Shown: one piece after another, positions 2,782-56,842 of the stretch
Position numbering within the stretch: the stretch's first letter is position 1
How the letters are laid out: every line of letters begins with the position of its first letter
Assembly (NCBI GenBank): GCA_043228905.1
Contig: JBHGNT010000002.1
Location: 20,646,001 to 20,710,000 of the forward strand
Source of the DNA: Azolla caroliniana
Taxonomy: Eukaryota > Plantae > Polypodiophyta
Reading direction: 5' to 3'
Length of the DNA stretch: 64,000 nucleotides
Notes under the pieces: model-generated
Told to the model about the DNA's origin: nothing
The model's input: the letters and a program-made list of their open reading frames with translations, nothing else
Databases searched by the model: none
Position numbers and translations under genes: made by a program

Positions 2782-4062
2782 CGTAAATGTATGTTTATAT
2801 TAAAACAACATGATAATACAAAAAAACCTTGCTATCAAAACTACGTCAAAGGTAGTGATGTGGCAAGGAAAACCTTCTAAGGTGTTGTAATACAAAGCGA
2901 CACAAATGTAACTCATTTGGGGACAAAGTTCCCATACAACATAATTGTGAAATTTGCCAAATCAACTTTCCTCTTATCCTACATATCTGTTGAGATACTC
3001 CAGAAAGCCCATCAAATAAGAAACCATTCCGCAAGTTCCAAATATACCACATGCCCAAATACTGCAAATAATCAAACACAAACTTATACTCTAGGGATGG
3101 TAAAACTCTGTCACCTTCAATGAAAACCCATTGAAAAGGTGACAAAACATTTCTAGTTAATGACCCCCACGGTTGTGATATACCTATCCATATACTTTTA
3201 GTAACAGGGCAAGATATAAATTTGTGTCGAGAATCTTCATCAACCGTCGTACAAAAGACACATGTACCACTACTAATGTGTCTTCGTTTTAAAGCCCTAG
3301 CCAAAGGTAACCCACCAATCATAGCCCGCCAAAGAAACACCTTTGCACGGAAAGGAAGATGAGACTTCCATCCTGCTTCTAAAACTCTAGCACACCATTC
3401 ACTTCCACGGATAATGTGCCATGTATCCAAAACCTTGCTCTGTACCCAAACTCTATCCTTAACCAACTTATGGTAAACATCATTTGTGTTCACTACAAAT
3501 AATGATTTCCTGTTATAAAAAAACCAATCTCTCCACGGTTCCACCACCACCAATTGTGGAATCGGTGATGATAAAATAGGCAATTGTACTATTTTTTGCC
3601 AAATCTGACCATATCTTAGACGTATATGAAATCTACTTCTCATAGTTCGAAAAGCCATCATCTGCCTCTGTGACTCTAAAATACCATCCTCCATAGTTAC
3701 CAAACCTAGTTTTGCCATTCTATTAAACTTTGACTTTAAACTGTCCTTTTCATCCCATTGTAATGATCTTGAAGATGCTATCACCTCTGTTGGCAAAGAC
3801 TTGCAATCTTTTCTATAATCAGGTGGTTTCCAATTGAACAACTTCAAACTTTTTTGCCAAGAGACCACTAAATGTTGAACAATAGTAGATGTTGAACATC
3901 TAAATGATCGAGTGCTATTAATAACATGCCACCATGAAGTTCTAATTTTTGTTTTACCATGTTGTATCCCCACTTTCTCCACAAAATAACAAATTATCTC
4001 AACCCATGGTTGAGAACCCAAACACATCTCTTTCAAGAGACTAAACCTTCGAGCAACTAGAT

Positions 4063-4064
<2 letters not shown>
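2779..4064 (-). mobile_element. 5'-truncated LINE (copy B), ORF2 C-terminus with zf-RVT
   Basis: ORF 2846..4108 carries WKSHLPFRAKVFLWRAMIGGLP...CVFC...EDSRHKFISC (zf-RVT). It begins at HLVARRFSL, homologous to HMMARRFS of copy A, directly after (GA)n. Confidence 0.9.

Positions 4065-4092
<28 letters not shown>
4065..4092. repeat. (TC)14 microsatellite at the LINE A/B junction
   Basis: Directly visible in the sequence. Confidence 0.95.
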
Positions 4093-4096
<4 letters not shown>

Positions 4097-4219
4097 GTGA
4101 AAACACACAATTATATTAATAAATGTGTGTAAAAAACACTACTTACAATAAGTGTGACAATGGAGTATGGTCACCCACTAACTACAGTACATGGGTAGTG
4201 GAACATGTTGAATTGCCAA

Positions 4220-13694: not shown

Positions 13695-14969
13695 TTAATG
13701 GCAGCTAATGCCAGGACAACAGTTGAAGATTCCACTCTTCTTGATTCCATTGGAGATCATATGACCACTAATGAAATTGCCAATGATGTTTTGAATCATA
13801 TAGTCCCTGATCGTGCTTCTTGCTTGTAGTAAAAAAACCTTTGTCATGACTATTGTCAGTTCTATTGTCATGACTATCATCAATTCTATCGACAAAATCT
13901 ATTGTATGTTCCTGATGGTCCCCCATGACTACAAGTTTTACAACATTGCCATGACACACCAATGGCTGGACATTTTGGAGTTCACAAAACTCTAGAATTA
14001 GTTTCTCGACAATATTGGTGGCCTCACCTTCGTCATTTTTTGGAGGAGTATGTTCACAATTGTGATACATGTTGTCGATCAAAGAGTCCTCAAGACCGAT
14101 CCTATGGCTTACTACAACCACTTCCCATTCCTGAAAATCCTTGGATTTCATTATTGATCTCCCAATTTTGAAAGGTTTTGATACAATTCTCACGATGGTC
14201 GATCGATTTATGAAAATGGCACATTTCTTGCCATGTACAAAGTCTATTACTAGTCAAGAGGCGGTCAATCTAGTTATGCAGGAGGTATTCCGACATCATG
14301 GTCTTCCAGATGATATTATTAGTGATCGTGGTCCACAATTCATCTCAAAGTTTTGGAAGCACATGTTCAAACTTCTCCGAATTTCAGTTAAGCTTTCTTC
14401 GGGCTATCATCCCGAGACTAATGGCCAAGCGTACCAACCTGACTTTGGAGCAATATCTTCGTTGTTTCATCAACTACCAAAAAGATGATTGGGTTGATTT
14501 TTTACACTTGGCTGATTCCCCATTTTTTACCTTACTTGGTTGATTGGTTAGGTAATACCTCCAATGATCGAACTTGGGAACCTGTAGCAAATATTGCCAA
14601 TGCCGCAGACATGGTCACCGCATTTCATCGCCAATATCTTCGTAAACCAGGTCCTAGTACAAACCTTAACCATTGTAATGATATGTTTATATGTTTTTTA
14701 GAATATATAATCTAATATCATAAGAATATTCTAGATTACTCTACATTCTAGAATGTCCTAGAATATTCTAGAGTGTTCTATATACTAGAACCTTCTAGAA
14801 TACTCTATAGGGACTTATAAATAAGGATCTATTAATCATCCCAAAACCAAATTGGTTCAACGCCATTCTACAACTACCTATTGCCTACTCTTTGTAATCC
14901 ATCTTATAGTGCAATACAATACTTTCCTTTCAATTCTCCCTCTCCCCCTCTCCCTCTTTTGTCTTAACA
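13695..14969 (+). mobile_element. Ty3-gypsy chromovirus remnant (integrase, partial chromodomain, 3' LTR 14674-14969)
   Basis: AGHFGVHKT...YWWP...CDTC (H2C2 finger), IISDRGPQF (rve), LVDWLG...RTWEP (chromodomain). LTR TGTAATGA...TCTTAACA. Confidence 0.85.
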
Positions 14970-15080
14970 GTTACTGAAATCCAAAAGTGAGTTGGTTTTT
15001 TTATTACTGTTTGTGTTTGGATTGCTTTCTTAATCTACTCTTGATTATGACCTTTATGTGTAATGTTTTTTTTCCATAAG

Positions 15081-16140: not shown

Positions 16141-19100
16141 TGTCGAATACGAGTGTATAATGGCCGCATTCACATTGTCCCTTTGGATAACCCAAGTTTG
16201 GGCTATTTCCGTAAATAGCATAAAGGGCAGTTGCCCTAGGATAGTCACTATATAAAGTGACTCTGTAACCTTTAGAAAAAGGGTTGGTTGTCATTTGTAA
16301 CTGTTGCTATTAAGAAATAAAACGTTTCTGTCAACCCGCTGCCGACCGTCATAGTACACCACACAACATTCTGTTTCTGTTTTTCTTGAAGAACAGAGAA
16401 GAGAGAAGACAAACAAGAAGTCTTCATCTCACTATGTTAAATCACTAATTGGAGTAAGCTAGCCAGCTATACTCTGTTCCTATGATTGTAACCACTTGAG
16501 ATTGGTCTCTAGGCAACAACCAAATTCGTGTTTCATTCGGCTGATCGACATTTGGGAGGATCAGTTGGATCCGTCCCTCTCATCGTTGTAGTCATCCGAA
16601 GCAGAATTGGCCTAAACAATTGGTTTCTTGTGATCGGTATTCGGCATACAATTAGAAGCTAACCGGAGTCACTCCAAGAAGGTTCAACAAACAAGTATCC
16701 GAAACCAAACCGACTCGGGTTCAAGACTGACTAGAACGATATCGGGTGAGCAAACCGACTACACCCCACTAAGGTTCCTAGTCAACTCCGAATAGAGTCT
16801 TACCAACCGAAACCGAATCAGATGGCATCAACATCCGGCTCATCGGAGATGAGTCTAAGGAGGTTCGATGGTTCGAACTTCAACTTTTGGAAGGAACAAA
16901 TGTAGGACTATCTCATAGTCAAGGTTCATACAGACCCGATTGAGTATGAAAATCCTTCAAAAGCATACAATGCAAACGAGTGGCTAAAGTTGGACAGAAT
17001 CGTCCGCGCCACGATTCAGATGCACTTGTCGGAGTCAGTGTACTTCACAGTGCAATCATGCTCGACAACTTTTGAACTTTGGAAAACACTGTTGGAAACT
17101 TATGAAAAGAAGGTCGCTGCAACGAAGATGTATCTGATCCGGAGCCTCTACAACTTGTAGATGAAAGAATCCAATTCGCTTCAAGCACACCTCAACGAGT
17201 ACGAAAGCCTAAGCTCCCAAATATCGTCTCAGGGGACGACAATAGAGGATGAACTTAGAGCAATGATACTCATGAGTAGTCTCTCCTCTTCTTGGGAAAC
17301 TTTCGTCACAACCATGTGCAATGCTTCAACAACTGCCATTAAGTACTCCGAAATCACGAGCGCAATCCTGACTGAAGCAACTCGGAGAGAGTCTTTCGCC
17401 AAAGACTCGGCAGATGAAGCTTACATAGTACAAGGTTCGACCGACCGATCGAACAACCGGGGAAGAAGTTCTTCCCGACCGCCGAACAATAAGGGAAGCC
17501 GGAGCAAGTCCCGGGACAACCGAATCTACAACTCAAAGCAAAAAACAACAAAGCTCAAAGAGCGGATAAGAAGAGTAGCCGGCATGAGGACGTCAACTAC
17601 GTTGGCTCTTTAGCCGAAATTTTGACGACCGACCTGAACATACTGTCCATAGAGAACCCAGTCGAATCAGAAATTCTGCTTACGACTGAGGAATCGAGCA
17701 CATGGCTCCTGGACTCAGGCGCATCGTATCATGTGACACCTCACCGATCTCAGTTTTGGCAATACTTGAACCAGCACTCCGACTCAGTTTGAGTCGGGAA
17801 CTCGCAACACTGTGCCATAATCGGAATCAGCACTGTAGAGCTCAACCTTCTGGGTGGCGCTACACTTGTACTACACAACGTCCGACACGTTCCTGAGCTT
17901 TCAAGTCCCTTGATCTCAGTCGGACAACTTGACGAAGCCAATATCCATGCCGGGTTCTCATTAGGAGGGTGGAAACTCCACAAATGGAACGTCCGGCTTG
18001 CTCGAGGACCAAAGGTACACTCTTTGTACCCTTTATATGTCACACTCAAAGAGGGTGACTTATTTTTGGTTGATATCCCTAAGTCATCGTTATGGCACAG
18101 ATGACTTGGACACCTCAGCAAGGCCGACATAACGCACCTATCCAGAGCCGGTTACATCCCCAAGCTCTCCTTCTTGGATCACCAATTCTGCGAGCATTGC
18201 TAGTACGGCAAACAGGTAGCCGCATCACACCCGACATCAACACCAAGAGAATCGAGTCCCTTGGATTTGGTCCACTTGGACATCTGTGGCCCGATGCCAC
18301 ATCAGTCTCTCGGTAGTGCTTCGTACTTCGTCAGTTTTATTGACGACTCGACTCAGAAGGTGTGGGCTTACCCCATTAGAACCAAAGATCGGGTGTTCTC
18401 GATCTTCTCCGAATGGCTTGCAATGGTTGAAAACCAGATTGGTCGGAAACTAAAATCTCTCCGAACTGATAATGGACGAGAATTCAAGTCTGACGAATTC
18501 GTCAAATTTTGCCGAGAACGCGGCATTCGACATGAATATACGACACCCTATAGTCCGGAGCAGAACGGAATTGCTGCACGCATGAATCAGACGATTCAAG
18601 AACGCATAGTATCCATGATCCAACACTCTAGACTGTCGAATGGCTTTTGGGCAGAGGCTCTCATTACGATAGTACACATAATAAATATGTCGCCAAGTAG
18701 ATCTCTAGGACTTAAAATACCTTAGGAAACATGGACCAGCAGTAAGCCGAATTATGACAAGTTGAGGATCTTCGGCTGCGAGGCATATGCCCTCATACTG
18801 AAAGACGACCGCCGGAAACTCAAACTAAGATCAAGGAAATATGTTTTCCTTGGATATGGACTCGACGGCGAGATCGGATACCAACTTTGGGACCCCGAGC
18901 ACAGACAAATTGTCTGAAGTTCGGACGTCGTGTTCAATGAGTCGACTATGCATAAAACGGCCGAAAGGCCTATTGAAGTTCGAAGTGCCAACCTTTCATG
19001 AAGGCCCAACCCACAACACGAGATCGGTTTCACGGGTAACCGACACCTCTCGTCCTGAATCCACTGATTCAACACAGTCGAATGGCTCGGCTTCCGACCA

Positions 19101-21167
19101 TCCGACACCTTTACCCGGTGCGACCAGTCCAGTCATACCTCGAAGATCCGAGAGACTGTCGCAACCTCCGGAATGGTACTCTCCTGGAATTTTATTTACC
19201 GACGCCGGTGAACCGACGTCTTACGAAGAAGCATCGGCATCTGCCGACTTAGCCACTTGGCATCTGGCGATGGAGTCGGAAATGCACTCCATTCGCGCAA
19301 ACAAGACTTGGGACTTGGTTGAATTACTGAAGAATCGACGTGCTCTTCCGTGTAAGTGGGTCTATCGACTAAAAGAGACGTCCGACTCGACCAACCTAGG
19401 CCAGATTAGTCGCAAAGGGATTTCGACAAGAATATGGCGTCGACTTCGACGAAATCTTTTCACCAGTGGTGAAAATGACAACCCTTCGTTTCATGCTCGG
19501 CGTCGTGGCCGTCGACAACTTGGAGCTGATTCAACTAGATGTAAAAACAACATTCCTCCATGGTGACCTCCAGGAGGAAATCTATATGGAGCATCTGAAA
19601 GGCTTTGTGGCATCCAGCCAGGAACATCTAGTCTACCGACTCAGGAAGAGTTTATACGGCCTGAAACAGGCACCCCGACAGTGGTACAAGAAGTTCGACA
19701 ACTTCATCCAGTTGGTCGGCTTCTCCAAGAGCGATGAGGACCACTGTCTCTTCACCAAAACAGCTCAAGACGGGTCTCCCATCTTTCTCATCATTTACAT
19801 GGACGACATGCTACTCTCCAGCCGACATGCCGAAGAGCTCACCGAACTCGTTCGGAAACTGCGGTTGAAGTTTTCCATGAAGGACCTCGGTCCGGCAAGA
19901 CACATACTTGGTATGAAGATTAGTCGGCATCGCGATACACGACAACTTTTCTTGTCTCAAATCGACTACATCGGACGTGTCTTGGAACGCTTCAACATGC
20001 ACTCGGCCAAGTCTGCTTCGACCCCACTCCCCATTAACCTTCGGCTGTCTCAGTGAGACTGCCCGACATCCGGTTCAGAGGGGGAAGATATGAAGTCAGT
20101 ACCGTATGCACCGGCAATCGGCTCCCTTATGTATGCGATGATCGCGACACGGCCTGATATTTCTCACGTCGTAGGAGTCGTCTACAGATTCATGCACAAC
20201 CCAAGCCGATCGCACTGGAACGCAGTCAAGCATTTGTTCAGATATCTAGTTGGCACAAAAGACCACGATATTCTTTTTGGCCCAATCTCAACCTCAAGCG
20301 TAGTCGGTTACACTGACTCGGACTTCACCGACTGCGTGGATAGTCGGAAATCAACAATTGGATATTGTTTGAAATTCGGCAATGGAGCAATCTTGTGGAA
20401 GTCAAAACTTCAGGAGTGCACAACCACCTCAACGACTGAAGCGGAATATGTAGCTACGTCTGACGCGGCAAAAGAAGCTTTATGGCTCGGTCGGCTGGCA
20501 CACACATTTCGACAAGTCGACCTCGACTCAGCTCCAGTTGTCTACAACGACAATAAGGGTGTTGTTGCTTTGTCAAAAAATCTGGTTCACCACAACGCCT
20601 CCAAGCATATCGACGTTCGATATCATTTTGTTCGAGATTGCGTCATTTCAAGGAAAATCGGTCTCAAGAAGATATCCACAACCGATAATGTCGCAGATGG
20701 AATGACCAAGTGTCTTTCGGCATATCGCTTCCAGTCCCTTTGGCACCAGATGGGCGTAATGAAAAATCTGTCCGGTTAAAGTCGGACACATAGCACAGGA
20801 TGGTTTCGGACAACTGACATCGGTTCTTTGAGGATTGGCTTTAGCTTTTCCGACCCGATCGGTTCGGTCTTCTGTCTTCAGATCTTGCCGACTCGAACAA
20901 AACCGATTTGTCCGATAAACCTTGTATATACCTGTAATTTAAGATACCCCATGTATACGCCCATTACGGGGGAGTGTCGAATACGAGTGTATAATGGCCG
21001 CATTCACACTGTCCCTTTGGACAGCCCAAGTTTGGGCTATTTCTGTAAATAGCATTAAAGGGCAGTTGCCCTTGGATAGTCACTATATAAAGTGACTCTG
21101 TAACCCTTAGAAAAAGGGTTGGTTGTCATTTTTAATTGTTGCTATTAAGAAATAAAACGTTTCTTTG

Positions 21168-25900: not shown

Positions 25901-28611
25901 AATCTTATCTTGATCTCCTGCAAGCTTTCTGATGATGACCCATCCGATCATATTGTTCAAATAGATTTTGATTATTAGAAACTACAATGTCTGCACAGTA
26001 ATCTCTCATATAGTTGCGGCATTCCATGTATGGCCTTACAGAGTTGTTAGGCTTTGTTTCATGAACTGAACTTTATAACCTAGTGACTACATGACAAAAT
26101 TGTTGATGTTCATCCAAGATCATAGATTCCATCTAAATGTTCAAGAGAGTAATTCAACATTCAGGTTGTAGACTGGTCAGCTCTAATTGCAACTTTTCTC
26201 CTTCATCAATGAACTGTAATGATCTTTGCTCATGCAATTTTCGAATGGCAAATTGTGATATCATTGCCATTTTTGCTCAATGAAAGTAGTATAAGTCAAG
26301 ATGCTGCTTTGAGAAACCACCTTACTGGGCCACAGTGTCAACTTCTGTTCATGGGACATCTGAAAGGATTGAAACCATGAAAGATTTAAGCTCATATTAA
26401 ATCAGAAACTGCTAGAGATTAGAAAACATATTAAAACCAAGAAACTAGAAAAAAACAGTCTCATAACGCTAATTTGTAAACATGGGAGGAAATAGGAAAA
26501 TATCCATTTTTCTAAAGTTTGATTAATCATCAACCATTAAGTTTTTATGGAATCTAAAACCAAATAGCTTATTTTCTCAGATCAAATCTGCAGTTCTATC
26601 TGTGTGGTCATCTCGATTAGTCTGGGCTCGGCAGAGTGAGATGTGGAAGGGAGATGCTCCATCTTTTTCACTAAGAAACATGCCTTACGAGTTGCTGAAT
26701 TATTTCGGAAGATCAGTTTTCAGTCCAGAGGTGACAGTTAAGAAAGATAGAGACACAACAGTGGAGGTATATCTTCTTGGTCATAAACATTTTCATTGAA
26801 TAATGCTGTAAAGGTTTGGATAATGAAACGAGTTTTTTTTCTTTCTTTTTTTCCAGATGACAGGAGCAAAGATAGAAGTTCACAAACATTTTCTGAAGCT
26901 TCAACAAAGCCATTTTAAATCTCGTGTACTAGGCCTAAACTCAACAGTGGAGCTGAGATTTAAAAATGGCCGAGAACCTGAGAAATATCTAACCATGGTA
27001 AGAAGGGGGAATAAGGTTGTCTTAGACCCTGATCGGTCATCAGAATCTTGTAATAGTAATTGTAGTGGCAAGCTACCCCAAGAAATAGACATAGATGTTA
27101 GCATGATCAGCAAAGTGCTAGTAGATAACAGTGATAATGCTGATGTGCAAAGAAAAAAGCTTGAAGATGTCTTGTATTTTCTCTTGTGCACCCCACCTGC
27201 ATGTCCACCTCACATCCTTGTTGCGTTGGGATGCTCTATAGAGAGTGTCGGAGTGAAACCTAAGTCATTTGATCTAGAAAAGGAGTTATTGGATGCGTGT
27301 AAAGGTCAACTCAACTCGAGCCAATTGAAAGCTTGGAATCACATGCTTTCAAACCCTCTTTCAGCAGTCATTGGACCACCAGGGACTGGAAAGACTACCT
27401 TAATTAAAGCGGTTGCAAAAGCATGGGAGCATCTGGGAGAGGCAGGGGAGACTCTCCTGTGTGTGGCACATCAAAATGTCGCCGTTAGGCACATGGCGGA
27501 GTCGATGGTGAAAGAGGGCATACCTGGGGTGCTTTTATTGATTAGTGAAGATTATTATGTGGATTGGCATGAGGACCATTACACACATGTCAAGGATTGT
27601 ATAGTAATTTCTGGACCTCAGACAGCGGCCGGGATGAAAACATGGGCATTTCGGAACAAGGTGACGGTGCCTAAAGTCATTCTATGTACGCTAGCTGTGA
27701 TAGGAAGTCAAGCTTTCTACACAGGGCTAATGGGTACGAAAGTGACTCACTTGATAATTGATGAATGCTCGCAAGCGGCTGAGGGTCACCTAATCTCTAA
27801 CTTGGTGTGCTTACCTCATCTACAAATGCTTAGTGTTCTTGGAGATCCCTCTCAACTTCCACCTTATGGAAAGCCGTTGCAAAGCGTATTTGACCTTGTC
27901 GCAGGCCAATGTGATATCAAATTCCTCCACCAACAATTCAGGATGCCAAATTGCATTGCAAAGTTTGTCTCAGAGGAGTTTTATCAAGGGAGGCTTGAAA
28001 CTGTTCAAAATGAAGCTCAAACAGGCCGAAGCTCGGTGCAAAAGCCATTGATTTGGGTGGCGGTTTCAGGTTTCCCGAGACAAGCTTCGGGCACCAAGAA
28101 GTCTCTATGCAATATTGCTGAGGCTGAAGCCATCGTTTCTTATTGCAAAGAATATAAGGCTAGGATGGATGCTGCAGGAATAGAGTTACATTACGGAAAG
28201 CTCATTGTGCTGTCACTTTATGAAGGGCAAAGGATAATGGTCACGAAGCTATTGAAGGAGAATGAGCTTGAGAAGATCCCGGTCTATAATGTTGATTCAT
28301 TTCAAGGTCAAGAGGCGGACGATGTGTTGATTTCTCTCGTGGTAGGGGACCGAGGTTCATCTTTTGCTGTTGATAGGAACCGGGCTTGTGTCTTGCTGTC
28401 TAGAGCAAAAAGACTCATGTACATCTTTGGTGATATTGAATCGGTAAAAGCCACCCGCCGAAGCCACAACCGCGTGGGTGTGGATAACATCTGGCGAAGC
28501 CTAGCAAACTATTGTGAGAAAAATCATTGGGTCGCAAATGAAGATGACCTTCGGGACATGGTCAGTTCGAATGTGAAAGCTGATGTTGAGTTTCGTGATC
28601 AGGGAGATTGA
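22836..28611 (+). CDS. Six-exon gene, about 1130 aa: presequence-like N-terminus, degenerate 3'-5' exonuclease-like domain and UPF1/DNA2-NAM7-like SF1B helicase
   Basis: Exons 22836-22931, 23683-24159, 24231-25030, 25112-25190, 26581-26766, 26857-28611. All introns are GT-AG with matching phases (0,0,2,0,0), giving 3393 nt with no internal stop. Helicase motifs GPPGTGKT, IIDECSQ, GDPSQLPP, QFRM, VDSFQGQE, NRACVLLSRAK. Confidence 0.85.
23683..24159 (+). CDS. Exon 2
   Basis: Acceptor TTTCTGTTTCAG, donor AAG|GTAATT, within ORF 23653..24213. Confidence 0.8.
24231..25030 (+). CDS. Exon 3 (start of exonuclease-like domain)
   Basis: Acceptor TTGTTGCAG, donor CAG|GTACTT. Contains FLGLVCKY and LSDENLVKVGPEIHKDALAL. 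Confidence 0.85.
25112..25190 (+). CDS. Exon 4
   Basis: Phase-2 entry, ELFNWDGLRRKRVIMSDWGSLLNLEQ, donor CAG|GTCTGT. Confidence 0.8.
26581..26766 (+). CDS. Exon 5
   Basis: Acceptor TTTTCTCAG, IKSAVLSVWSSR...TTVE, donor GAG|GTATAT. Confidence 0.8.
26857..28611 (+). CDS. Exon 6: UPF1-like SF1 helicase core (AAA_11/AAA_12-like)
   Basis: Long polypyrimidine acceptor (TTTTTTCCAG). 584-aa ORF with all SF1B motifs, Walker A at 27373-27396. Confidence 0.92.
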   Translation: MTGAKIEVHKHFLKLQQSHFKSRVLGLNSTVELRFKNGREPEKYLTMVRRGNKVVLDPDRSSESCNSNCSGKLPQEIDIDVSMISKVLVDNSDNADVQRKKLEDVLYFLLCTPPACPPHILVALGCSIESVGVKPKSFDLEKELLDACKGQLNSSQLKAWNHMLSNPLSAVIGPPGTGKTTLIKAVAKAWEHLGEAGETLLCVAHQNVAVRHMAESMVKEGIPGVLLLISEDYYVDWHEDHYTHVKDCIVISGPQTAAGMKTWAFRNKVTVPKVILCTLAVIGSQAFYTGLMGTKVTHLIIDECSQAAEGHLISNLVCLPHLQMLSVLGDPSQLPPYGKPLQSVFDLVAGQCDIKFLHQQFRMPNCIAKFVSEEFYQGRLETVQNEAQTGRSSVQKPLIWVAVSGFPRQASGTKKSLCNIAEAEAIVSYCKEYKARMDAAGIELHYGKLIVLSLYEGQRIMVTKLLKENELEKIPVYNVDSFQGQEADDVLISLVVGDRGSSFAVDRNRACVLLSRAKRLMYIFGDIESVKATRRSHNRVGVDNIWRSLANYCEKNHWVANEDDLRDMVSSNVKADVEFRDQGD

Positions 28612-29539: not shown

Positions 29540-30543
29540 ATTCATATCATCAAGTGTTGTAAAAATAATGATATACATTGTGTCAAGGTGGAGGGGTTCC
29601 GAACTGTGAGAGATTTGGAAGATAAGAAAGGATGATCGTGGGCTTAGCCCAAAATCAAGTACTTCAAAATGGAAAATTAAGAGAGAATCTTAGGCTTTCA
29701 ATAGATTGATGATAAAAAAGAGTTAAATAAAGAAATACTAAAGTGGGTTGAGTAGAACCCTCAGTTTGTGAGAGGCATGATTACAAGCATATGGAGATTC
29801 AAATAAAAAGAAAGCTGCTATGCTTAGAAGAGTATGTCCTTTTGATTAGCACAAGAGGAAAGCTTCTATGCTTCACACATTTGATAATTATCTAAATTGT
29901 TTGTAGATTAGTTCCCTTGATAATTCTCACTTCACTTTTCTTAATGATTAGTGGACCATATAATCATCTAAGACATTTACCTTATATACCTTTAGGTTCT
30001 CTTCTCCCTTAAAGATAATTTAGAAGTCTCTCTTTTTAAATACTTAGGGTTTACTTGTAGCACTTGGTCTAGATTTGTTTTGAGTATCTTTCTGAAGATT
30101 TGAACCCTTCTCCAAACAATGGGCATTGTGAGCATTGTTCCAACGCATAAAGATGAGTCAAATAATAAGATGGGTTGGCTCAACAAGTATGGAATAAAGT
30201 TCTTTCGTTATTCTTAACAATCAATGTCGGCTGCCTATTTTCATGGGGATCAACAATGTGAGGAGTGTTACATTCCAGCATGATGCTGTATGAGGCAAAC
30301 GATGTTCAGAAGGCAATGACGGTACATAATAGAATATTGATATTAGTTATCCCCTTTCAGCAACCTCAAAAGCAAGTGCAATCTGTCCAAGTTTAGAAAA
30401 CAGTGACTACAGTAACGTTATAGGCATTATGGAAATGTCGATGTAACTGACTTTATGATGCAATAGATCTTCGTCTCTCAGATGTCTTACTGAGATATGG
30501 GAGAACTTGCTGGTAGTAGTCCATGGCCAGTATGACAATGTGC

Positions 30544-30976
30544 TATCATGATATGGCAAGATTCAAACCCATGACCTTATGCGACATGGGTCGAGCTCTT
30601 GACCATTAGACTATACATTATAATACGTAAAATATTATTTTCATTTATGTTTTATTATAGAAAATTGATATATATTCCAGATTTCTCTGGAACATTCTAG
30701 AAACTTCAGGAGTATTCCTTAGAACACTATAAAAGGAGGCACGAGGCATTATTTCGAACCAAATCGGTTCAACGCTAGTCTTAAGCCTCCTAGCTACTAC
30801 TGTACATTCTCTTCACATAATATATATATTTTCTTATCATCTCTCTCTCTCTCTCTCGATCTCTCTCTCCCTCCCTCTCACTCACTCTTTCCTTCTCTCG
30901 AGAGTTCTTCACCTCTCTTAGTACGAATACTTCTTTTAGTACTAATTCCTTCTCTGTCTTAGTATTGTTCCTGACA
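30544..30976 (+). mobile_element. Gypsy solo LTR with TSD
   Basis: TATCATGA...CCTGACA flanked by TGTGC on both sides, near-identical to 32091-32533. Confidence 0.88.
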
Positions 30977-31109
30977 TGTGCATGGTTCCCTAGAGACTAT
31001 GAACAAAAGAAGGAAGAAGCTTCTTCATGATACGTTTAGGATTGAAGACGAAACAAGAATGATAGGTTGAAAACACAAAATAGAGTAAATCCTTGACGTC
31101 GTATAGAAA

Positions 31110-32381
31110 ATCTCCAGTGAAGACACCGCCGAAATTGTCATGCGTGAAGTATGTCGGCATCATGGATTTCCCGATAGTATCGTCAGCGACCGTGGACCCC
31201 AGTTCGTGTCAAAATTCTGGAAGCACCTTTTTAAAATGCTCAAGGTCACTTGTAACCTCTCCTCCGGCTACCACCCACAAACCGACGGCCAAGCCGAACG
31301 AACAAATCAAACACTGGAGTAGTACCTGCGGTGCTTTCTCAGCTATCATCAGGATGACTGGGCAGATATTCTCCACTTTGCCGAATTTGCCTATAATAAC
31401 TCTATCCATGCATCGACTAAAGTTACGCCATTTTATGCTTATACGGGATGTCACCCCCGGTGGTGTGTACTTGAAACCCCAGAGGTGTCCACAAATCCTT
31501 GCGCGGAGGATCGTTTGGAGCGGTTACGCAAGATACAAGCGGATTTATCTACTCATCTCCAACAAGCTCAGCAAACACACAAGGTTTATACGGATTTTCA
31601 TTGACTCCCATCCAGTTTTAACATTGGAGATCGGGTATGGCTACTCCGACGACACATCAAGACTACTCACCCATGCGAGAAGTTGGATTATCGACGATTA
31701 GGTCCTTTCCGTATCATAGGAAAGATTAATGATGTCGCTTTTCGTCTCGATCTACCTCCACAACTTCGGATACATCCGGTGTTTCATTCCTTGAACCCTA
31801 TCAAGAGAGCACCATCCCAGGACGTATTACACAGCCTCCACCCCCGATCGAGCTTGAAGATGGACCTGAGTACGAGGTTGCCGCCATCCTTGATTCCAAG
31901 ATTGTTCGCAACAAGCTCTACTATCTAGTCGATTGGCTAGGATATAGCCCTAGTGCGCGTACTTGGGAACCGATAGAGAATGTCACCAATGCTCGTGCAC
32001 TTCTTGAAGACTTCCATCATCAATATCCAGACAAACCGGGTCCTCAATCCAAAACGACTTGTTACACTCGTCGTTTTAAAAGGGGGATAGTGTCATGATA
32101 TGGCAAGACTCGAACCCATGACCTTATGCTACATGGGTCGAGCTCTTGACCATTAGACTATACATTGTAATACATAGAATATTATTTTCATTTATGTTTT
32201 ATTATAGAAAATTGATGTATATTCCAAATTTCTCTGGAACATTCTAGAAACTTCAGGAGTATTCCTTAGAACACTATAAATGGAGGCACGAGGCATTATT
32301 TCGAACCAAATCGGTTCAACGCTAGTCTTAAGCCTCCTAGCTACTACTATACATTCTCTTCACATAATATATATCTTTTCT

Positions 32382-32430
<49 letters not shown>

Positions 32431-32533
32431 CCTCTCACCCACTCTTTCCTTCTCTCGAGAGTTCTTCACCTCTCTTAGTACTAATACTTCTTTTAGTACT
32501 AATTCCTTCTCTGTCTTAGTACTGTTCCTGACA
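31110..32533 (+). mobile_element. Ty3-gypsy chromovirus 3' part (integrase, chromodomain, PPT, 3' LTR 32091-32533)
   Basis: IVSDRGPQF, YHPQTDGQAER, GPFRI...IHPVFH, YEVAAILDS...YLVDWLGY...TWEP. PPT AAAAGGGGGATAG precedes TGTCATGA. Confidence 0.9.
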
Positions 32534-32659
32534 TGTGCATGGTTCCCTAGAGACTATGAACAAAAGAAGGAAGAAGCTTCTTCATGATACGTTTAGGACT
32601 GAAGACGAAACAAGAATGATAGGTTGAAAACACAAAATAGAGAAGAATTGATTGGAAAT

Positions 32660-33223
32660 GAAGCGCTTCCGAAAGCTACACCACTTTTTCAGCTTCGCAT
32701 ATGCGTAGGTAGTTGGTTGGGTAAAAATTGACCAAGCCGCAGATGCTTAACTGATTTAAGTTTCGAATGATCAGCCACACTGGGACTGAGACACGACCCA
32801 AACTCCATAGGGAGGCAACAATGGGGAATATTAGACAATGGGCGAAATCCCGATCCAACAATATCGTGTGAGTGAGTGAAAAACTTCGCCTTAGCGCGTA
32901 AGGGCAATGCTGCTTGTAAAGCTCTTTCGTCGAGTACGTGATTATGACAAGACTCGAAGAAGATGCCCCAGCTAACTCCGTGTTAGCAACCATGGTAAGA
33001 CGGGGGGGGGCAAGTGTTATTCGGAATGACTGGGCATAAAGGGCATGTAGGCAATGAATCAAGTTGAAAGTCAAAGGCGCCAGCTCAACTAGTGGAATGC
33101 GTTCAAAACCAATTTACTCGAGTGGGACAAAGGGGAGTGGAATTTCGTGTGTAGGGATAAAATCCGGAAATATACGAAGGAACGCCGACTCAGCGAATAC
33201 AATTTTTTGGGTCTCTACTAATG
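32660..33223 (+). rRNA. rrn18: Mitochondrial 18S rRNA fragment, decayed nuclear copy (NUMT), part 1
   Basis: GATCAGCCACACTGGGACTGAGACAC, CTTGTAAAGCTCTTTCGTCGAG and GGTAAGACGGGGGGGG..CAAGTGTT are plant-mitochondrial SSU signatures. Many G>A/C>T changes fall in invariant motifs. Confidence 0.88.
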
Positions 33224-33790
33224 TGTTAGGAAACAGGTCCCTATGGATGGGAAGAGAAGAGCCGAGTTGATGAGGAACTTGGCCGAGGTCGAAACCGAAA
33301 TCGTGTAGACAACCAACTCGAAAGACTAGTTTTAAATAGTCTAAATATGCCCTTATGGGCTACACTTGTAAATAACCCAAAAGGTGTACTAGTATATAAG
33401 TACTTAGGGCAATCATAATATTGTGTGTGATGGGCGATTGTCAAAAGGTTAATCCAAAGGTCATTGCCTCTGTAACTGTGTAACCGTAAGTGAGTGAGAG
33501 TGAGGGCGTGTGTAACTCTGTAGCCGTCTGTCGACGAAGTAGAATCTCGAGGTCGTTGCCTTGGAGCTTCTAGTTGCACTCCTCCTTTTTTTTGGCATAG
33601 TGATTCCGTTTCTCTGGGTTTGTGGACCCCCATGGTTTTTCCCATTTCGGGTTTCCACGTTAAAATCGTGTGTTTCTGTCTCTTGTGCTATTTTTGTTTT
33701 CGAACTTTGTCTTAGCGCATTCTATTTTACATTCCCTGCACTTGAACATCTGAACGAGCAGCTGGTTGTGGCCGGTCACGATTCTCAACA
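33224..33790 (+). mobile_element. Solo LTR (copia-type) inserted in the NUMT
   Basis: TGTTAGG...CTCAACA, TSD TAATG/TAACG. The rRNA is colinear across it. Confidence 0.9.
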
Positions 33791-47727: not shown

Positions 47728-47813
47728 TGTTGAAGATGAAGGTCGTCTTTGGGGAAGATCAAGAAGCATTCGTTTTCTTCTCTGTACCTGCGTATGACTG
47801 TTTGTAGGTCGTT

Positions 47814-47847
<34 letters not shown>

Positions 47848-48017
47848 ACAAAAGAGTCTTTATTTCATAAAGAAGAATACAACAAGCCAACCCCACAAAG
47901 AGGTTACAAGGTCACTATATATAGGGACCGACTTAGGGCAACTGCCCTTTATGCTAATTACATAAATGGCCAAAACGGGATAGTGTGAATACGTCCATTA
48001 TACACATGTATTCGACA
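47728..48017 (-). repeat. 3' LTR (290 bp)
   Basis: TG...CA ends, direct repeat of 52910-53197. Confidence 0.97.
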
Positions 48018-48210
48018 CTCCCCCGTAATGGGCGTATACATGGGTTATCTAAGATTACAGGTATAGACTTAGGTTCTCGGACATATCAGCTTTGTTCAAG
48101 TCGGCAGGGTCCGAAGGCAGAAGACCGAACTGGTCGGGTCGGAACAGTTGAAGCCGATCATTAAGGAACTGATGTCGGTTGTCGAGAACTATCCTGCTCT
48201 GTGTCCGGCT

Positions 48211-51200
48211 CTAACCGGACTGGTTTGTCGTTACGCCCATCTGATGCCGAAGAGACCGAAAGCGGTCTGCCGAAAGACACTTGGTCATTCCATCTGCGAC
48301 ATTGTCGGTTGTGGATATTTTCTCTAGACCGATTTTCCCTGAAATGACGCAGTCCCGAACGAAGTGATATCGAACGTCGATATGCTTGGAGGCGTTGTGG
48401 TGAACCGGATTTTTCGACAGGGCAACAACACCTTGTCTGTCGCTGTAGACAATTGGAGCCGAGTCATGGTTGACTTGTCGAAACGTGTGCGCCAGCCGAC
48501 CGAGCCACAAAGCTTCTTTTGCTGCGTCGGACGCAGCTACATATTCTGCTTCGGTCGTTGAGGTCGCTGTGCACTCCTGAAGTTTCGACTTCCACGAGAT
48601 TGCTCCATTGCCGAACTTGAAGCAGTATCCGGTTGTTGATTTCCGACTGTCTATACAGCCGGCGAAGTCCGAGTCGGTGTAACCGACTACGCCTGAGGTT
48701 CGGTTCGGACCGAAAAGAATGCCGTGGTCTTTTGTGCCAGCCAGATATCTGAACACATGCTTGACTGCGTTCCAATGCGATCGGCCAGGGTTGTGCATAA
48801 ATCTGCTAACGACTCCTACGGCATGAGAAATATCAGGCCGTGTCGCGACCATCAGGTACATAAGGGAGCCGACTGCCGGTGCATACGGTACCGACTTCAT
48901 ATCTTCCCCCTCCGGGCCGGATGTCGGGCAGTCTCGCTGAGAGAGCCGAAGATTCATGGGGAGCGGGGTTGAAGCAGATTTGGCTGATTGCATGTTGAAG
49001 CGTTCTAAGACACGTCCGATATAGTCGGTCTGAGACAAAAAGAGATGTCGTTTATCGCGATGCCGACTAATCTTCATGCCGAGTATGTGTCGTGCCGGAC
49101 CGAGGTCCTTCATTGCAAACTTCAACCGCAGTTGCCGAACGAGATCGGCAAGTTCGCCCGCGTGGCGTCCAGAAAGTAGCATGTCGTCCACGTAGATGAT
49201 GAGGAAGATGGGTGAACCATCTTGAGCTGTGTTGGTGAAGAGACAATGGTCCTCATCGCTTTTTAAGAAGCCGATCGATTGGATGAAGTCGTCGAACTTC
49301 TTGTACCATTGTCGCGGTGCCTGTTTGAGGCCGTATAGACTCTTCCTGAGTCGACAGACTAGATGTTCTTGGCCAGGTGCCACGAAGCCTTTTGGCTGCT
49401 CCATGTAAATTTCTTCCTCGAGATCACCATGGAGGAATGCTGTTTTGACATCTAGCTGAATCAGCTCCAAGTTGTCGGCTGCCACTACGCCGAGCAGAAA
49501 ACGAAGGGTTGTCATTTTCACCACTGGTGAAAAAATCTCGTCGAAGTCGACGCCATATTCTTGTCGGAAGCCCTTCGCAACTAATCTGGCCTTGTACTTT
49601 GGGGTGGTCGAATCAGACGTCTCTTTTAGTCGATAAACCCACTTGCAAGGAAGAGCACGTCGGTTCCTGGGTAAGTCGACCAGATCCCAAGTCTTGTTTG
49701 CCCGGATGGAGTGCATTTCCGACTCCATCGCCAGATGCCAGGTGGCGGAATCGACAGATGTCGATGCTTCTTCGTAAGACGTCGGTTCGCCGGCGTCGGT
49801 GAAGAAAATTCCAGGAGAGTACCTCTCCGGAGGTTGCGACAGTCTCTCGGATCGTCGAGGTATGATTGTACCGGTCGCATCGGGTATCGAGGTCGGATAG
49901 TCCGAAAGCGGATTGTTCTGCTGTGCCGAGTCGGAGTTGTCCGAGTCGGTGGTGTAAGGTTCAGCTACCCGTGAAGCTGACCGTGTGTTGAGAGCAGGGC
50001 CTTCTTGAAGGGTCGGCACATCGGAAAATGTTACCCTTCGGACTTCGATCGATTTTTCGACTGATGGGTTCATAGCCGACTCGTTGAACACAACATCCGA
50101 ACTTCGAACGATTTGTCTGCGTTCGGGGTCCCAGAGTCGGTATCCCATTTCGCCGTCTGATCCATATCCAAGGAGAATGCATTTCCTGGACCGAGGTGCA
50201 AGTTTTCGGCGATCATCTTTCGGAATGAGGGCGTACGCCTCGCATCCGAAGATCCTCAGCTTGTCGTAATTCGGCTTGCTGCCGATCCATAGTTCCTGAG
50301 GAATTTGAAGTCCTAGAGGTCTACTTGGCGACATGTTGATTATGTGTACTGCCGTGAGTAGAGCCTCTGCCCAGAAGCCATCCGACAGTCCGGAGTGTTG
50401 GAGCATGGAAACGATCCGTTCTTGGATTGTCCGATTCATTCGCTCTGCGATCCCGTTTTGCTCCGGACTGTGTGGTGCCGTAAGTTCGCGTCGGATGCCG
50501 CGTTGTCGGCAGAATTTGACGAACTCTTCTGATTTAAACTCTCCCCCATTGTCGGTCCGAAGGCATTTCAGCTTTCGGTCGGTTTGATTTTCTACCATAG
50601 CGAGCCAATCGGAGAAGATCGAGAAGACACGATCTTTGGTGCGAATTGGATAAGCCCACACCTTTCGAGTCGAATCGTCAATAAAAGTGACGAAGTAAGA
50701 TGCACCGCCTAGAGACTGATGCGGCATTGGGCCACAGACGTCCGAATGGACTAAATCGAGAGGTCTCGTTTCTCTTGGTGCTGATGTCGGGTGTGATGTG
50801 GCTGCTTGTTTGCCATACTGACAATGCTCGCAGAATTGATGGTCCGAGAAGGAGAGTTTGGGGATGTATCCGGCTCTAGATAGGTGCGTGATGCCGGCCT
50901 TGCTGAGGTGTCCTAATCTTCGGTGCCATAGTGATGACACAGGAATGTCCACCAAAAACAGGTTACCCTCTCTGAGCGTAACATGTAACGGATACAGTGA
51001 GTGTATCTTGGGTCCTCTAGCAAGCAGGAGGTTCCCCCTGTGGAGTGTCCACCCTCCCGAAGAAAAACCGGCACGAATGCCGTCTTCATCTAGTTGTCCG
51101 ACTGAGATCAATGGCCTTGAGAGCTCGGGTACATGTCGGACATTGTGGAGTACAAGTGTAGAGCCACCTGCAAGGTTGAGCTCTACTGTGCCGATTCCGA

Positions 51201-52227
51201 TGATGTCACAGTGTTGTGAGTTGCCGACCCGAACTGAGTCGGAGTGACGGATCGTATATTGCCGAAATTGGGGCTGATGAGGAGTCACATGAAATGACGC
51301 GCCCGAATCCAAGAGCCATGTGCTCGATTCTTCAGTCGTGAGCAGAACTTCTGAGCCGATTGGATTTTCGATTGATAGTATGTTCGGGTCGTCCGGTAGC
51401 ACATCAGCTGAGAAGCTGACGTAATTGATCTCCTCATGCCGGCCACTCTTTTTGTTGTTCTTGTTCTTGAGTGCGCGGCAGTCGGCTTTGATGTGTCCGG
51501 GTTTCTTGCAATAGTTGCAGATTCGGTTGTCCCGTGACTGGCTCCGTCTTCGCTGATTGTTCGGCGGTCGTGAGGAATCTCTTCCTCGTATGTTCGATCG
51601 GTCTGTCGAACCTTGTACTACGTAAGCGTCGTCTGTTGAGTCTTTGGCGAAAGACTTTCTCCGAGCTGCTTCGGTCAGGATTGCGCTCGTGACTTCGGAG
51701 TATTTAACAGCCGTGGTTGACGCGTTGCACACGGTTGTGACGAAAGTTTCCCATGATGAGGGAAGGCTGCTCATGAGTATCATTGCTCTGAGTTCATCCT
51801 CGATTGCCGTCCCCTGTGACGAGATTTGGGAGCTTATGCTTTCGTACTCATTGAGGTGTGCTTGAACCGAGTCGGATTCTTTCATCCGCAAGTTGTAGAG
51901 GCGCCGGATCAGAAACATCTTCGTTGCGGCGACCTTCTTTTCGTAAGTGTCTGACAGTGTTTTCCACAGTTCGAATGCTGTCGTACACGATTGCACCGTA
52001 AAGTATACCGATTCCGATAGGTGCATCCGAATCGTGGCGCGGACGATTCTGTCCAGCTTCTGCCACTCAATTGGTTTGTATCCTTCTGGAGGTTCTTCAT
52101 TTTCGATGGGATCGATTTGCCCCTTGACTATGAGATAGTCTTGCATTTGTTCCTTCCAGAAGTTGAAGTTCGATCCATCGAACTTGCGTAGACTCATTTC
52201 TGACGAGCCGGATGTTGATGCCATCAA
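48211..52227 (-). CDS. Copia gag-pol polyprotein (Gag, CCHC knuckle, protease, integrase, RT, RNase H)
   Basis: CNYCKKPGHIKADC, WLLDSGAS, HSDVCG/RTDNGGE/GIAER, IYVDD, YTDSD/TEAEY/NVADGMTK. Confidence 0.97.
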   Translation of the reverse strand: MMASTSGSSEMSLRKFDGSNFNFWKEQMQDYLIVKGQIDPIENEEPPEGYKPIEWQKLDRIVRATIRMHLSESVYFTVQSCTTAFELWKTLSDTYEKKVAATKMFLIRRLYNLRMKESDSVQAHLNEYESISSQISSQGTAIEDELRAMILMSSLPSSWETFVTTVCNASTTAVKYSEVTSAILTEAARRKSFAKDSTDDAYVVQGSTDRSNIRGRDSSRPPNNQRRRSQSRDNRICNYCKKPGHIKADCRALKNKNNKKSGRHEEINYVSFSADVLPDDPNILSIENPIGSEVLLTTEESSTWLLDSGASFHVTPHQPQFRQYTIRHSDSVRVGNSQHCDIIGIGTVELNLAGGSTLVLHNVRHVPELSRPLISVGQLDEDGIRAGFSSGGWTLHRGNLLLARGPKIHSLYPLHVTLREGNLFLVDIPVSSLWHRRLGHLSKAGITHLSRAGYIPKLSFSDHQFCEHCQYGKQAATSHPTSAPRETRPLDLVHSDVCGPMPHQSLGGASYFVTFIDDSTRKVWAYPIRTKDRVFSIFSDWLAMVENQTDRKLKCLRTDNGGEFKSEEFVKFCRQRGIRRELTAPHSPEQNGIAERMNRTIQERIVSMLQHSGLSDGFWAEALLTAVHIINMSPSRPLGLQIPQELWIGSKPNYDKLRIFGCEAYALIPKDDRRKLAPRSRKCILLGYGSDGEMGYRLWDPERRQIVRSSDVVFNESAMNPSVEKSIEVRRVTFSDVPTLQEGPALNTRSASRVAEPYTTDSDNSDSAQQNNPLSDYPTSIPDATGTIIPRRSERLSQPPERYSPGIFFTDAGEPTSYEEASTSVDSATWHLAMESEMHSIRANKTWDLVDLPRNRRALPCKWVYRLKETSDSTTPKYKARLVAKGFRQEYGVDFDEIFSPVVKMTTLRFLLGVVAADNLELIQLDVKTAFLHGDLEEEIYMEQPKGFVAPGQEHLVCRLRKSLYGLKQAPRQWYKKFDDFIQSIGFLKSDEDHCLFTNTAQDGSPIFLIIYVDDMLLSGRHAGELADLVRQLRLKFAMKDLGPARHILGMKISRHRDKRHLFLSQTDYIGRVLERFNMQSAKSASTPLPMNLRLSQRDCPTSGPEGEDMKSVPYAPAVGSLMYLMVATRPDISHAVGVVSRFMHNPGRSHWNAVKHVFRYLAGTKDHGILFGPNRTSGVVGYTDSDFAGCIDSRKSTTGYCFKFGNGAISWKSKLQECTATSTTEAEYVAASDAAKEALWLGRLAHTFRQVNHDSAPIVYSDRQGVVALSKNPVHHNASKHIDVRYHFVRDCVISGKIGLEKISTTDNVADGMTKCLSADRFRSLRHQMGVTTNQSG

Positions 52228-52909
52228 ATTCGGTTTCGGTTGACTAAGCTCGGTTCGAAGTTGACTACGAACCTTGTTGGAGTGCAGCCGGTTGGCTCAC
52301 CCGATATCGTTCTAGTCGGATTTGAACCCGAGTCGGTTCGGCTTCTTGTTGAACTTGCTCGAATTGACTCCGGTAGCTGGAGGGACAGAACCGACTGGTC
52401 TTCCCGAATGTTACCGAGTCGGAGTGAGTCCGGTTCGCTTCGGATATATATGCCGAATACCGATTATTAAAACCGATTATCTGGACCGATTCTGCTTCGG
52501 GTGGCTGCAGCGACGAGAGGGATGGATCCAACTGATCCTTTCGAATGTCGATCAGCCAGAAGAAGCACGAATTTGGGGTTGTTGTCTTAAGACCGATCTG
52601 CACCGAGTGGTTACAACGAGCGGCGATTGATGACCTCTTCGGATGCCGTTTAACCGAGTGGAGCACGATCGTGTCAAAGTTTCACAAGGGGAATTTCACC
52701 TCAAGCGGTTACGATCTCGGAGGACAGAGTACAATCTGTTGGCTTACTCCAAGCAAGAATGATCTAACGCGATGAGATGCAAACCTGGTTTTTCTTCTTC
52801 TTCTCTCTTTCTTCGAATGACGCGAATACTGTGCAGGCCGTGATGAAGTGAAGAACCGAATGCTGTGCAGTCGGTGATGACGGCCGATGTTGAATGCTCT
52901 GATACCAGA

Positions 52910-53197
52910 TGTTGAAGATGAAGGTCGTCTTTGGGGAAGATCAAGAAGCATTCGTTTTCTTCTCTGTACCTGCGTATGACTGTTTGTAGGTCGTTGCACA
53001 GAGAGAGAGAGAGAGAGAGAGAGAGGCACAAAAGAGTCTTTATTTCATAAAGAAGAATACAACAAGCCAACCCCACAAAGAGGTTACAAGGTCACTATAT
53101 ATAGGGACCGACTTAGGGCAACTGCCCTTTATGCTAATTACATAAATGGCCAAAACGGGATAGTGTGAATACGTCCATTATACACATGTATTCGACA
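52910..53197 (-). repeat. 5' LTR (288 bp)
   Basis: TG...CA ends, adjacent to the PBS. Confidence 0.97.
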
Positions 53198-56070: not shown

Positions 56071-56842
56071 TGACGGGAACTCAACGCTCCTTATGCACAA
56101 AGCTCGGCCACAACCGAGATTCTTTTCATACACAGAAAACAGGAAACGAAAACACGACTCAAAGGAGAGGAAGGTACACAGGAGGTTTACGTGGAAAACC
56201 CCCAAACTAGGGGAAAAACCACGGCAGCCCACAGGCTGCAAACTGTCACTATCTAGGAATATACAACAGTGAGTTCACTGAGGCACCGACCTTGTGCTCA
56301 CAGATCTTCGCCACACGCGGCGGTTACAACAGAGGCAACGACCTCTTTCTCTCTCTCTCTCTCTGTACACTATTACGTGCTCTCTCTTCTTCTTGCACCA
56401 ACAAAGAAAAAGTAACAACAACCTTTTTCTAAAAGTTTGCCCTAAGTCATATTTATACTAATATGACTTTTCGGCTATTTACAAATGTAGCCTCGATAGG
56501 CTCTCAGAAACATATTTACGAATATGTCTCTTCATCCGGTTCTCACCGGGTCTGTACCATCCGGCTCTCCGTAGCCGGGTATTCCTCATCCGGTCTTCAC
56601 CGGGTCTATATCATCCGGCTCTCCGTAGCCGGGTACTCCTCATCCGGTTCATACTGGGTTTGTATCATCCGGCTCTCCGTAGCCGGGTACTCCTCATCCG
56701 GTTCATACCGGGTCTGTATCATCCGGCTCTCCGTAGCCGGGTCCTACTCATACGGTTTCGGCTCGGCCTATCGGCTGAGGTCGAGTTTGTTCATCGGCAC
56801 TGTTCTTCTCCCTTCCCATCCGGAGGGACCTGTCTCCCAATA
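56071..56842 (-). mobile_element. Solo LTR with TSD GGCCT inserted in the LINE
   Basis: TGACGGGA...TCCCAATA, perfect TSD, family motif TTTACGTGGAAAACCC...AAAAACCACGG. Confidence 0.9.
56530..56750. repeat. 54-bp tandem repeat (4 copies) inside the LTR
   Basis: CATCCGGCTCTCCGTAGCCGGG at 56558, 56612, 56666 and 56720. Confidence 0.93.

Follow-up and report, generated by a model that had tools for sequence, protein, structure and literature searches.

The window (the whole stretch of DNA analysed, 64,000 nt) carries a tRNA-gene-like cassette on the minus strand, close to the start of the 3′ LTR of a truncated retrotransposon that we assign to the Tcn1-type chromoviruses on grounds given below. 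The features used in the analysis were the following:

14661..14971, plus strand: LTR of a sister family, in which a 97-nt deletion took the polypurine tract (PPT), LTR start, B box and spacer
30544..30976, plus strand: solo LTR with the second cassette copy (30555–30616) and a 5-bp TSD at 30539–30543 and 30977–30981
30977..31085, plus strand: 109-bp flank, duplicated at 32534–32642 with one mismatch, which marks a local tandem duplication
31086..32098, plus strand: broken 3′ part of an integrase with a group I chromodomain (about 31871–32020), an in-frame stop and a frameshift
32078..32090, plus strand: PPT; on the antisense strand, its complement supplies a T4 run (cassette position 87)
32091..32533, plus strand: 3′ LTR of a truncated, predicted Tcn1-type chromovirus (443 bp, TGTCA...TGACA)
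32096..32167, minus strand: tRNA-gene-like cassette (tRNA positions 1–72 by analogy; no cloverleaf)
32104..32148, no strand: hairpin, a 17-bp imperfect inverted repeat, strong in the window's own family only
32107..32116, minus strand: B box (G52–C61), its core conserved across 17 aligned families
32120..32124, minus strand: variable-loop-like block beside the B box (tRNA positions 44–48)
32150..32160, minus strand: A box (T8 R9 G10 Y11 .. A14 R15 T16 G18 G19), conserved across 17 aligned families
32275..32280, plus strand: inferred TATA box of a Pol II promoter, with an equivalent site in all nine related LTRs listed
32308..32319, plus strand: self-primer at the inferred R start, complementary in relatives to the leader after the 5′ LTR

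The cassette is placed antisense, 16–75 nt inside the LTR; in the window, it begins 16 nt into the 443-bp LTR. The sequence-only reading had quoted the minus strand of 32102–32163 as holding an A box and a B box, 45 nt apart from T8 to G53, in a stretch able to fold as a hairpin of about 17 bp. The letters match as quoted, the boxes were found at 32150–32160 and 32107–32116 at that distance, and the hairpin is real in the family of the window's LTR (hereafter, the window family), with a fold of −24.3 kcal/mol for the window cassette (z −4.84; none of 200 shuffles was as good). Positions are numbered, and boxes scored, according to a tRNA numbering and an A/B box consensus that we take to be the accepted ones. 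The boxes described for Helenus elements (TRGCY, YGG, and GGTTC) agree with the consensus used here in the available text of that paper (PMC10886601). A loose scan for A+B pairs found a pair in 14 of 100 shuffled windows, along with two further, unrelated pairs elsewhere in the real window. The box pair of the single window is only modestly above chance, and it is the family data that decide.

The cassette had been described as present in both LTR copies, with a C>T in the B box of the second. The second copy does lie at 30555–30616 and has C56>T in its B box, plus a change at the free position 59, but the two LTRs, which differ by 17 mismatches over 433 aligned nt, do not form the 5′ and 3′ ends of one element: 30544–30976 is a solo LTR with its own TSD, and the flank is duplicated. 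As both LTRs adjoin the same 109-bp flank, we attribute the pair to local tandem duplication, and the window's two cassette copies are therefore not independent evidence. The cassette's supposed absence from the related LTR at 14674–14969 turned out to be the 97-nt deletion of a single copy, in which the A box is still present in its 3′ half, at about 14661–14675. Locus L066, 92% identical to this LTR beyond the gap, carries the cassette, as do L061 and L040 in the alignments.

Several neighbours of the LTRs were recorded in passing. To the right of the insertion site, 32640–33280 is a decayed fragment of an organelle-type SSU rRNA (Rfam RF00177, E 1.5e-67), likely of mitochondrial origin and copied into the nucleus. 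An intronless frame of 594 codons at 26827–28611 resembles Upf1-like SF1 helicases, with 83% identity both to a protein of Adiantum and to a protein cluster that includes one of Pteridium, which makes a fern the likely host. Two related copia elements occupy 47728–53197 (minus strand) and 16141–21164 (plus strand), the former being young, given its 1361-aa open frame and near-identical LTRs. Tandem repeats lie at 241–651 and 56528–56797, with units of 63 and 54 nt.

The window family is very abundant. The stretch or part of it was present in 20 public sequence runs from 10 studies, covering five organisms and two metagenomes, and 2942–6232 contigs per run aligned to 531 bases; run depths are sums over contigs, from which no copy number is derivable. 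At 32091, about 15 to 66 contigs per run diverged into unrelated flanks. Among public RNA runs, five contained just 4–12% of the stretch's words, and another was flagged as probably DNA. Relatives were collected with a query made from 38 aligned homologous chromodomain ends; the 77 loci obtained come from 16 metagenome assemblies, possibly all of one host group. The integrase halves of these loci were 53–100% identical, and several loci had open gag and pol frames of 1150–1230 aa.

In the window, the PPT and the integrase end precede the LTR. The integrase end matches the PF00385 chromodomain (E 2e-14) with the aromatic Y, W, and Y positions kept, as in group I chromodomains. The leader after the LTR end can pair with 12 nt that follow the TATA box at a distance of about 30 nt (perfectly so in six of nine loci), and in the L022 family, self-primer and leader covary. 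No tRNA PBS was seen among the eight leaders listed, and none of them starts with TGG. Because the leader pairs with the element's own R start, we infer Tf1-type self-priming, which has been predicted for the Tcn1 clade (PMC6317226, in its available parts). Group I chromodomain and self-priming together point to a Tcn1-type chromovirus, an assignment in which the likeness to SM-Tcn1 was judged by eye; the named protein matches were of the Tf1/sushi group from fungi and vertebrates, and the integrase tree holds no reference Tcn1 element.

As far as the accessible text of the papers on the Tcn1 clade goes (PMC2864245, PMC6317226, PMC3350952), members of that clade, SM-Tcn1 among them, share with the elements studied here the group I chromodomain, an LTR of about 440 bp ending in TGACA, the layout of leader and R start, a 5-bp TSD, and self-priming. 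The same text describes moss and lycophyte members only and mentions no Pol III boxes. Compared by eye, the SM-Tcn1 sequence in supplement S3 of PMC2864245 has a very similar chromodomain and the same leader/R-start layout, and the B-box core is absent from its first 130 nt. The authors of that sequence found no priming signal, in the part of the paper available, whereas the complementarity of leader and R start is visible by eye. As a separate observation, the self-primer at 32308–32320, with those of L021, L046, L068, and L074 in the same place, is one arm of a short palindrome, and in these five it also reads as a sense-strand B-box-like word.

An LTR start could be used in 63 of the 77 loci; 10 of the remainder had none by our rule and four lay on contigs that ended too early. 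L007 and L030, both dropped for want of an LTR start by rule, later showed a full or partial cassette. Together with the window, the usable starts formed 25 families at 75% identity. An antisense A+B score of at least 14 out of 16 within the first 130 nt was reached in 15 of these families, against one of 25 on the sense strand, none of 22 in the next 130 nt, and none of 500 shuffles. Most of the 10 families scoring below 14 were single decayed copies. However, one multi-copy family, L044/L063, no longer has an A box, and the cassette is weak in L013 and L071, which is why we consider it dispensable in some lineages. At the LTR start of L044/L063, a partial duplication that contains a second B-box-like word stands in place of the A box. 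The sequence-only reading had allowed that the hairpin alone might be shared, or that the cassette might be confined to this locus; it is the boxes and not the hairpin that are conserved, and the cassette occurs well beyond this locus.

Conservation by position was assessed in 17 aligned families, which were chosen for having the box pair (8 of the 25 were left out), and the share of the top letter was 0.94 at box positions, 0.89 at positions 44–48, 0.55 in the spacer, and 0.50–0.51 in the flanks. In the A box, R9, T16, and G18 were kept in 17 of 17 families, A14 and G19 in 16, and T8 in 15; G10 was kept in just six. In the B box, G53, T55, C56, R57, and A58 were invariant (17/17) and C61 was present in 12. 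Two further elements go beyond the A/B consensus: positions 44–47 (window 32121–32124), intact in 14 of the 17 families, and T35 (window 32133), kept in 16. The spacing from A to B box was 44–45 nt in all 17, whereas the distance from the LTR start to the B box varied from 16 to 63 nt. When 16 multi-copy families were anchored on the B box only, so that the A box was not searched for, T8 was still found in 13, G18/19 in 12–15, and positions 44–47 in 14–16.

Variation within families followed the same positions. At positions 56–57, contigs of coverage of at least 5 read CG in 25 cases, CA in 13, and TG in none (38 of 39 scored). Box-breaking forms (TG twice, TA and AA once each) were confined to the low-coverage copies, of which 22 of 25 were scored. 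In the window family, G57>A made up 0.3–4.2% of summed depth in four public runs from four organisms, and C56>T did not appear at the 1% threshold in these runs. The same G>A change at a control CpG (32140) made up 1.5–7.0%, a comparison based on crude depth sums and on a control site that pairs in the hairpin. Among the 40 of 113 variant entries listed, the common A-box variants hit the free or two-letter positions 9, 11, and 12. Joints that skip the cassette were single contigs of low depth.

A profile of the cassette matched antisense at the LTR start in 56 of the 63 loci at E ≤ 0.01, and the next-best matches included two real tRNA genes (E 0.12 and 0.13). On a midpoint-rooted tree of 21 integrase halves, no main branch is without the boxes, and L044 and L013, the two families in which they are weakened, fall at separate places within intact groups. 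This distribution argues for an old capture followed by losses, and by this evidence the cassette appears ancestral to all sampled families of the clade. Our verdict, as far as comparison of the LTRs can carry it, is that the cassette is real, clade-wide, and apparently under selection. The earlier proposal that a family had captured a tRNA or SINE head holds in part: the cassette is best read as a tRNA-type Pol III/TFIIIC site, but the capture would not be family-specific, in view of the inferred ancestry and of the deletion behind the missing sister copy.

That the cassette is a tRNA gene can be set aside. It gave no Rfam tRNA match at E ≤ 10 and no ARAGORN call, ARAGORN called none on any cassette in 34 loci, and cloverleaf covariation was lacking (49.7% of cells paired, compared with 48.6% in shuffles). 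A relaxed ARAGORN search allowing introns returned 63 junk calls, which were disregarded. In locus L041, tRNA genes for Asn and Thr (552–627 and 831–906) lie 140–490 nt before a truncated element of the clade. A tRNA-derived SINE was likewise rejected: in 325 kb searched there were no copies with a body, a tail, and their own TSD, and the profile matches at E ≤ 0.01 included no free-standing SINE-like copies (two or three were without a clear PPT or LTR start, none with a SINE tail). A second self-priming site had been considered, as the sense-strand word opposite the B box resembles the leader; L022 changed its self-primer and kept its B box, and positions 56–57 prefer CG, where primer pairing would prefer CA. 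The search of viral contigs gave two distant loci, with no LTR in L078 and no match in a motif scan, and none were found in prokaryote genomes.

Consensus sites of the cassette are fixed and free sites are free, the spacing is fixed, and the fold is lost, which is the pattern of a DNA signal read by TFIIIC. On the sequence evidence, the cassette is probably a selected promoter of Pol III type, serving either as a boundary against chromatin spread or read-through transcription or as the source of a functional antisense RNA. The boundary is the reading we prefer, with a confidence that stands about even: a type-2 Pol III promoter, set at the outer margin of U3 and facing out of the element, which TFIIIC likely binds and which likely keeps the Pol II promoter open. 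Since the boxes point outward and the Pol II promoter and self-primer lie further in, Pol III could not make genome RNA from this site. TFIIIC-bound tDNA and ETC sites of yeasts have a barrier role. According to the available text of PMC4228148, TFIIIC-bound sites in yeast also block Pol II read-through. We favour a boundary over an RNA because neither an RNA fold nor a terminator is conserved and because of this yeast precedent (PMC4228148). The elements resemble the yeast tDNA/ETC boundaries in their B-box sites; those act on neighbouring chromatin and on Pol II transcription and are host loci of shown activity, whereas here the sites are predicted ones borne by a retrotransposon (PMC4228148, in part).

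In such a boundary, the B box would recruit TFIIIC, as follows from established Pol III biology, and the A box would place TFIIIB on the AT-rich U3 between the cassette and the TATA box. The bound complex would create a nucleosome-poor zone and block heterochromatin spread or read-in transcription from the flank, protecting a Pol II promoter 110–250 nt further in; a short antisense RNA, if any, would be a by-product. The cassette would go back to a single ancient capture, of a tRNA gene or of a SINE head, that preceded the split of the families, and each round of reverse transcription would copy it into both LTRs. At the 3′ LTR, the genome transcript would have to pass the same complex and might be limited by it. 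In the available text of PMC7466625, chromodomain integrases are thought to target heterochromatin.

The kept A box and the fixed spacing of 44–45 nt fit true transcription as well as they fit a boundary. An alternative that we hold to be somewhat unlikely is therefore that the antisense RNA is itself the point: a short Pol III RNA of about 75–105 nt, terminated by a T run that lies either in the LTR or in the PPT complement, would pair with the U3/PPT end of genome RNA or feed small-RNA control. LTRs of simian foamy viruses provide a precedent, as they make Pol III pri-miRNAs (PMC3993851, in its available part). A T4 run lies within 60 nt downstream in 11 of the 17 families, inside the LTR in seven, with six of the runs at positions 73–81, but these terminators are T4 at most and are missing in six families, and the A4 control was found in as many (6/17). 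Internal T4 is absent from the cassette in all 17 families; internal A4 occurs in only one, so the missing internal T4 says little. The window family has its strong hairpin, and across the clade the window register pairs in 65% of cells, compared with 32–48% when slid; this pairing was nevertheless not above shuffles (93 of 500), RNAalifold gave no consensus pair across families, and the hairpin z in the other 24 family representatives ranged from −2.35 to +0.95. Counts of G-U versus A-C did not tell the strand, as the slid controls share the bias.

A different role, on the sense strand, seems improbable to us: a site just behind the PPT in genome RNA might anneal to a packaged tRNA through the latter's D and T loops, as the U3 half of the bipartite PBS does in Ty3. 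The U3 of HIV-1 has a similar tRNA-like stretch. The best-kept blocks of the cassette are contiguous (14–19 and 44–58), and the asymmetry of C56 and G57 would fit G-U wobble. The position beside the PPT and the antisense orientation are those of the Ty3 3′ PBS, where U3 sequence is complementary to the tRNA T and D arms, as described in the accessible part of PMC5371799. Ty3, however, is tRNA-primed and matches one tRNA, while the elements studied here self-prime and keep pan-tRNA positions only (PMC5371799, in part); the layout for self-priming and the variation at isotype-specific positions rule against a bipartite PBS of Ty3 type. The elements are without a tRNA PBS, the leader being complementary to their own R start (perfectly in 6/9 loci), in keeping with self-priming of the Tcn1/Tf1 kind (PMC6317226). 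Positions 49–51, 59, 60, and 10–13 vary freely, which pairing with a single tRNA would forbid, and the isolated T8 and R9 are kept, in a fixed 45-nt spacing that is gene-like and that pairing would not need.

The third alternative, equally improbable in our estimate, takes the cassette for a selectively neutral remnant of an ancient tRNA or SINE insertion, or for a chance resemblance created by the palindrome. Loss or weakening of the cassette in some families is what it would predict, and the 72 nt of U3 that follow are nearly as alike between families as the cassette (0.53 and 0.56; shuffled 0.46), so the LTRs as a whole have not diverged to saturation. The conservation is nonetheless limited to promoter positions (0.94, compared with 0.55 in the spacer), a CpG open to methylation either persists or changes in the tolerated way only, the spacing stays fixed amid indels, and the palindrome is strong in one family only, so that a relic or chance reading is largely refuted. 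A landing-pad role, in which the boxes would serve retrotransposons that target Pol III or be exploited by them, is very unlikely: 6 of the 63 LTRs break off from their relatives before nt 250, and none shows the LTR end of another element at Pol III start distance, although short collapsed contigs would hide such insertions.

The outward Pol III-type site preferred here has its closest counterpart in Helenus (TRIMp3; Kojima 2024), compared here on the available text of PMC10886601. As in our elements, Helenus LTRs hold tRNA-derived A and B boxes without a functional tRNA fold, the plant and fungal members have a 5-bp TSD, and a SINE or tRNA capture has been proposed as the origin. Helenus elements are, however, non-coding, 311–1263 bp long, and equipped with a tRNA PBS, whereas those studied here encode gag-pol, self-prime, and keep a TATA box. 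In the consensus LTRs of Helenus-1_SMo and Helenus-2B/2C_ToGe, the boxes are in sense, so that Pol III can make element RNA; here they are antisense at the U3 edge in all scoring families. Helenus membership was rejected on the coding capacity, the missing tRNA PBS, and the antisense boxes, despite the match of the boxes themselves. Kojima also argues, in the same text (PMC10886601), that Pol II is obligatory for autonomous partners and that LTR sequence of this sort is unlikely to be shared by them, and remarks that tRNA-like parts occur in “not a few” Repbase LTRs, which the paper leaves undescribed.

The analogy with Cassandra LTRs, drawn from the sequence alone at the outset, is loose. In Cassandra and Ajax TRIMs, a 5S-derived type 1 promoter drives the transcript of a non-autonomous element, while our elements are autonomous, with a TATA box, a self-primer, and outward boxes, and Helenus is the nearer system (PMC10886601, in part). 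LTR cassettes of foamy viruses share the setting of an autonomous retroelement with A and B boxes beside a Pol II promoter; they belong to an unrelated lineage, box mutations lower their RNA, and they have conserved hairpin products and terminators, none of which is conserved here (PMC3993851, in its available part). Our search of the open-access literature found no account of A/B boxes in the LTRs of Tcn1 or of any other autonomous plant element.

Pol III promoters known in LTRs belong to non-coding TRIMs, where they make element RNA, and to foamy viruses, where they make miRNAs. The clade studied here is coding, Pol II-driven, and self-priming, and it keeps such a predicted promoter backward at the LTR edge in many families; because a backward promoter cannot make genome RNA, another use is needed. 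More tentatively, and short of an even chance, these may be a clade of autonomous plant chromoviruses that aim for heterochromatin and bring their own TFIIIC insulator in every LTR. Each insertion or solo LTR would then plant an outward Pol III complex, and where these families rank among the commonest repeats of a genome, such mobile sites could outnumber the real tRNA genes and shape chromatin boundaries genome-wide. The finding further points to a high abundance of Tcn1-type elements in a fern, a host outside the mosses and lycophytes covered by the cited papers. The boundary, if true, would explain simply, and in a way open to testing, how a chromodomain element can remain transcribable after landing in silent chromatin. 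A large surplus of TFIIIC sites would be expected in the host as well, for which natural B-box mutant copies such as 30555–30616 would be built-in controls.
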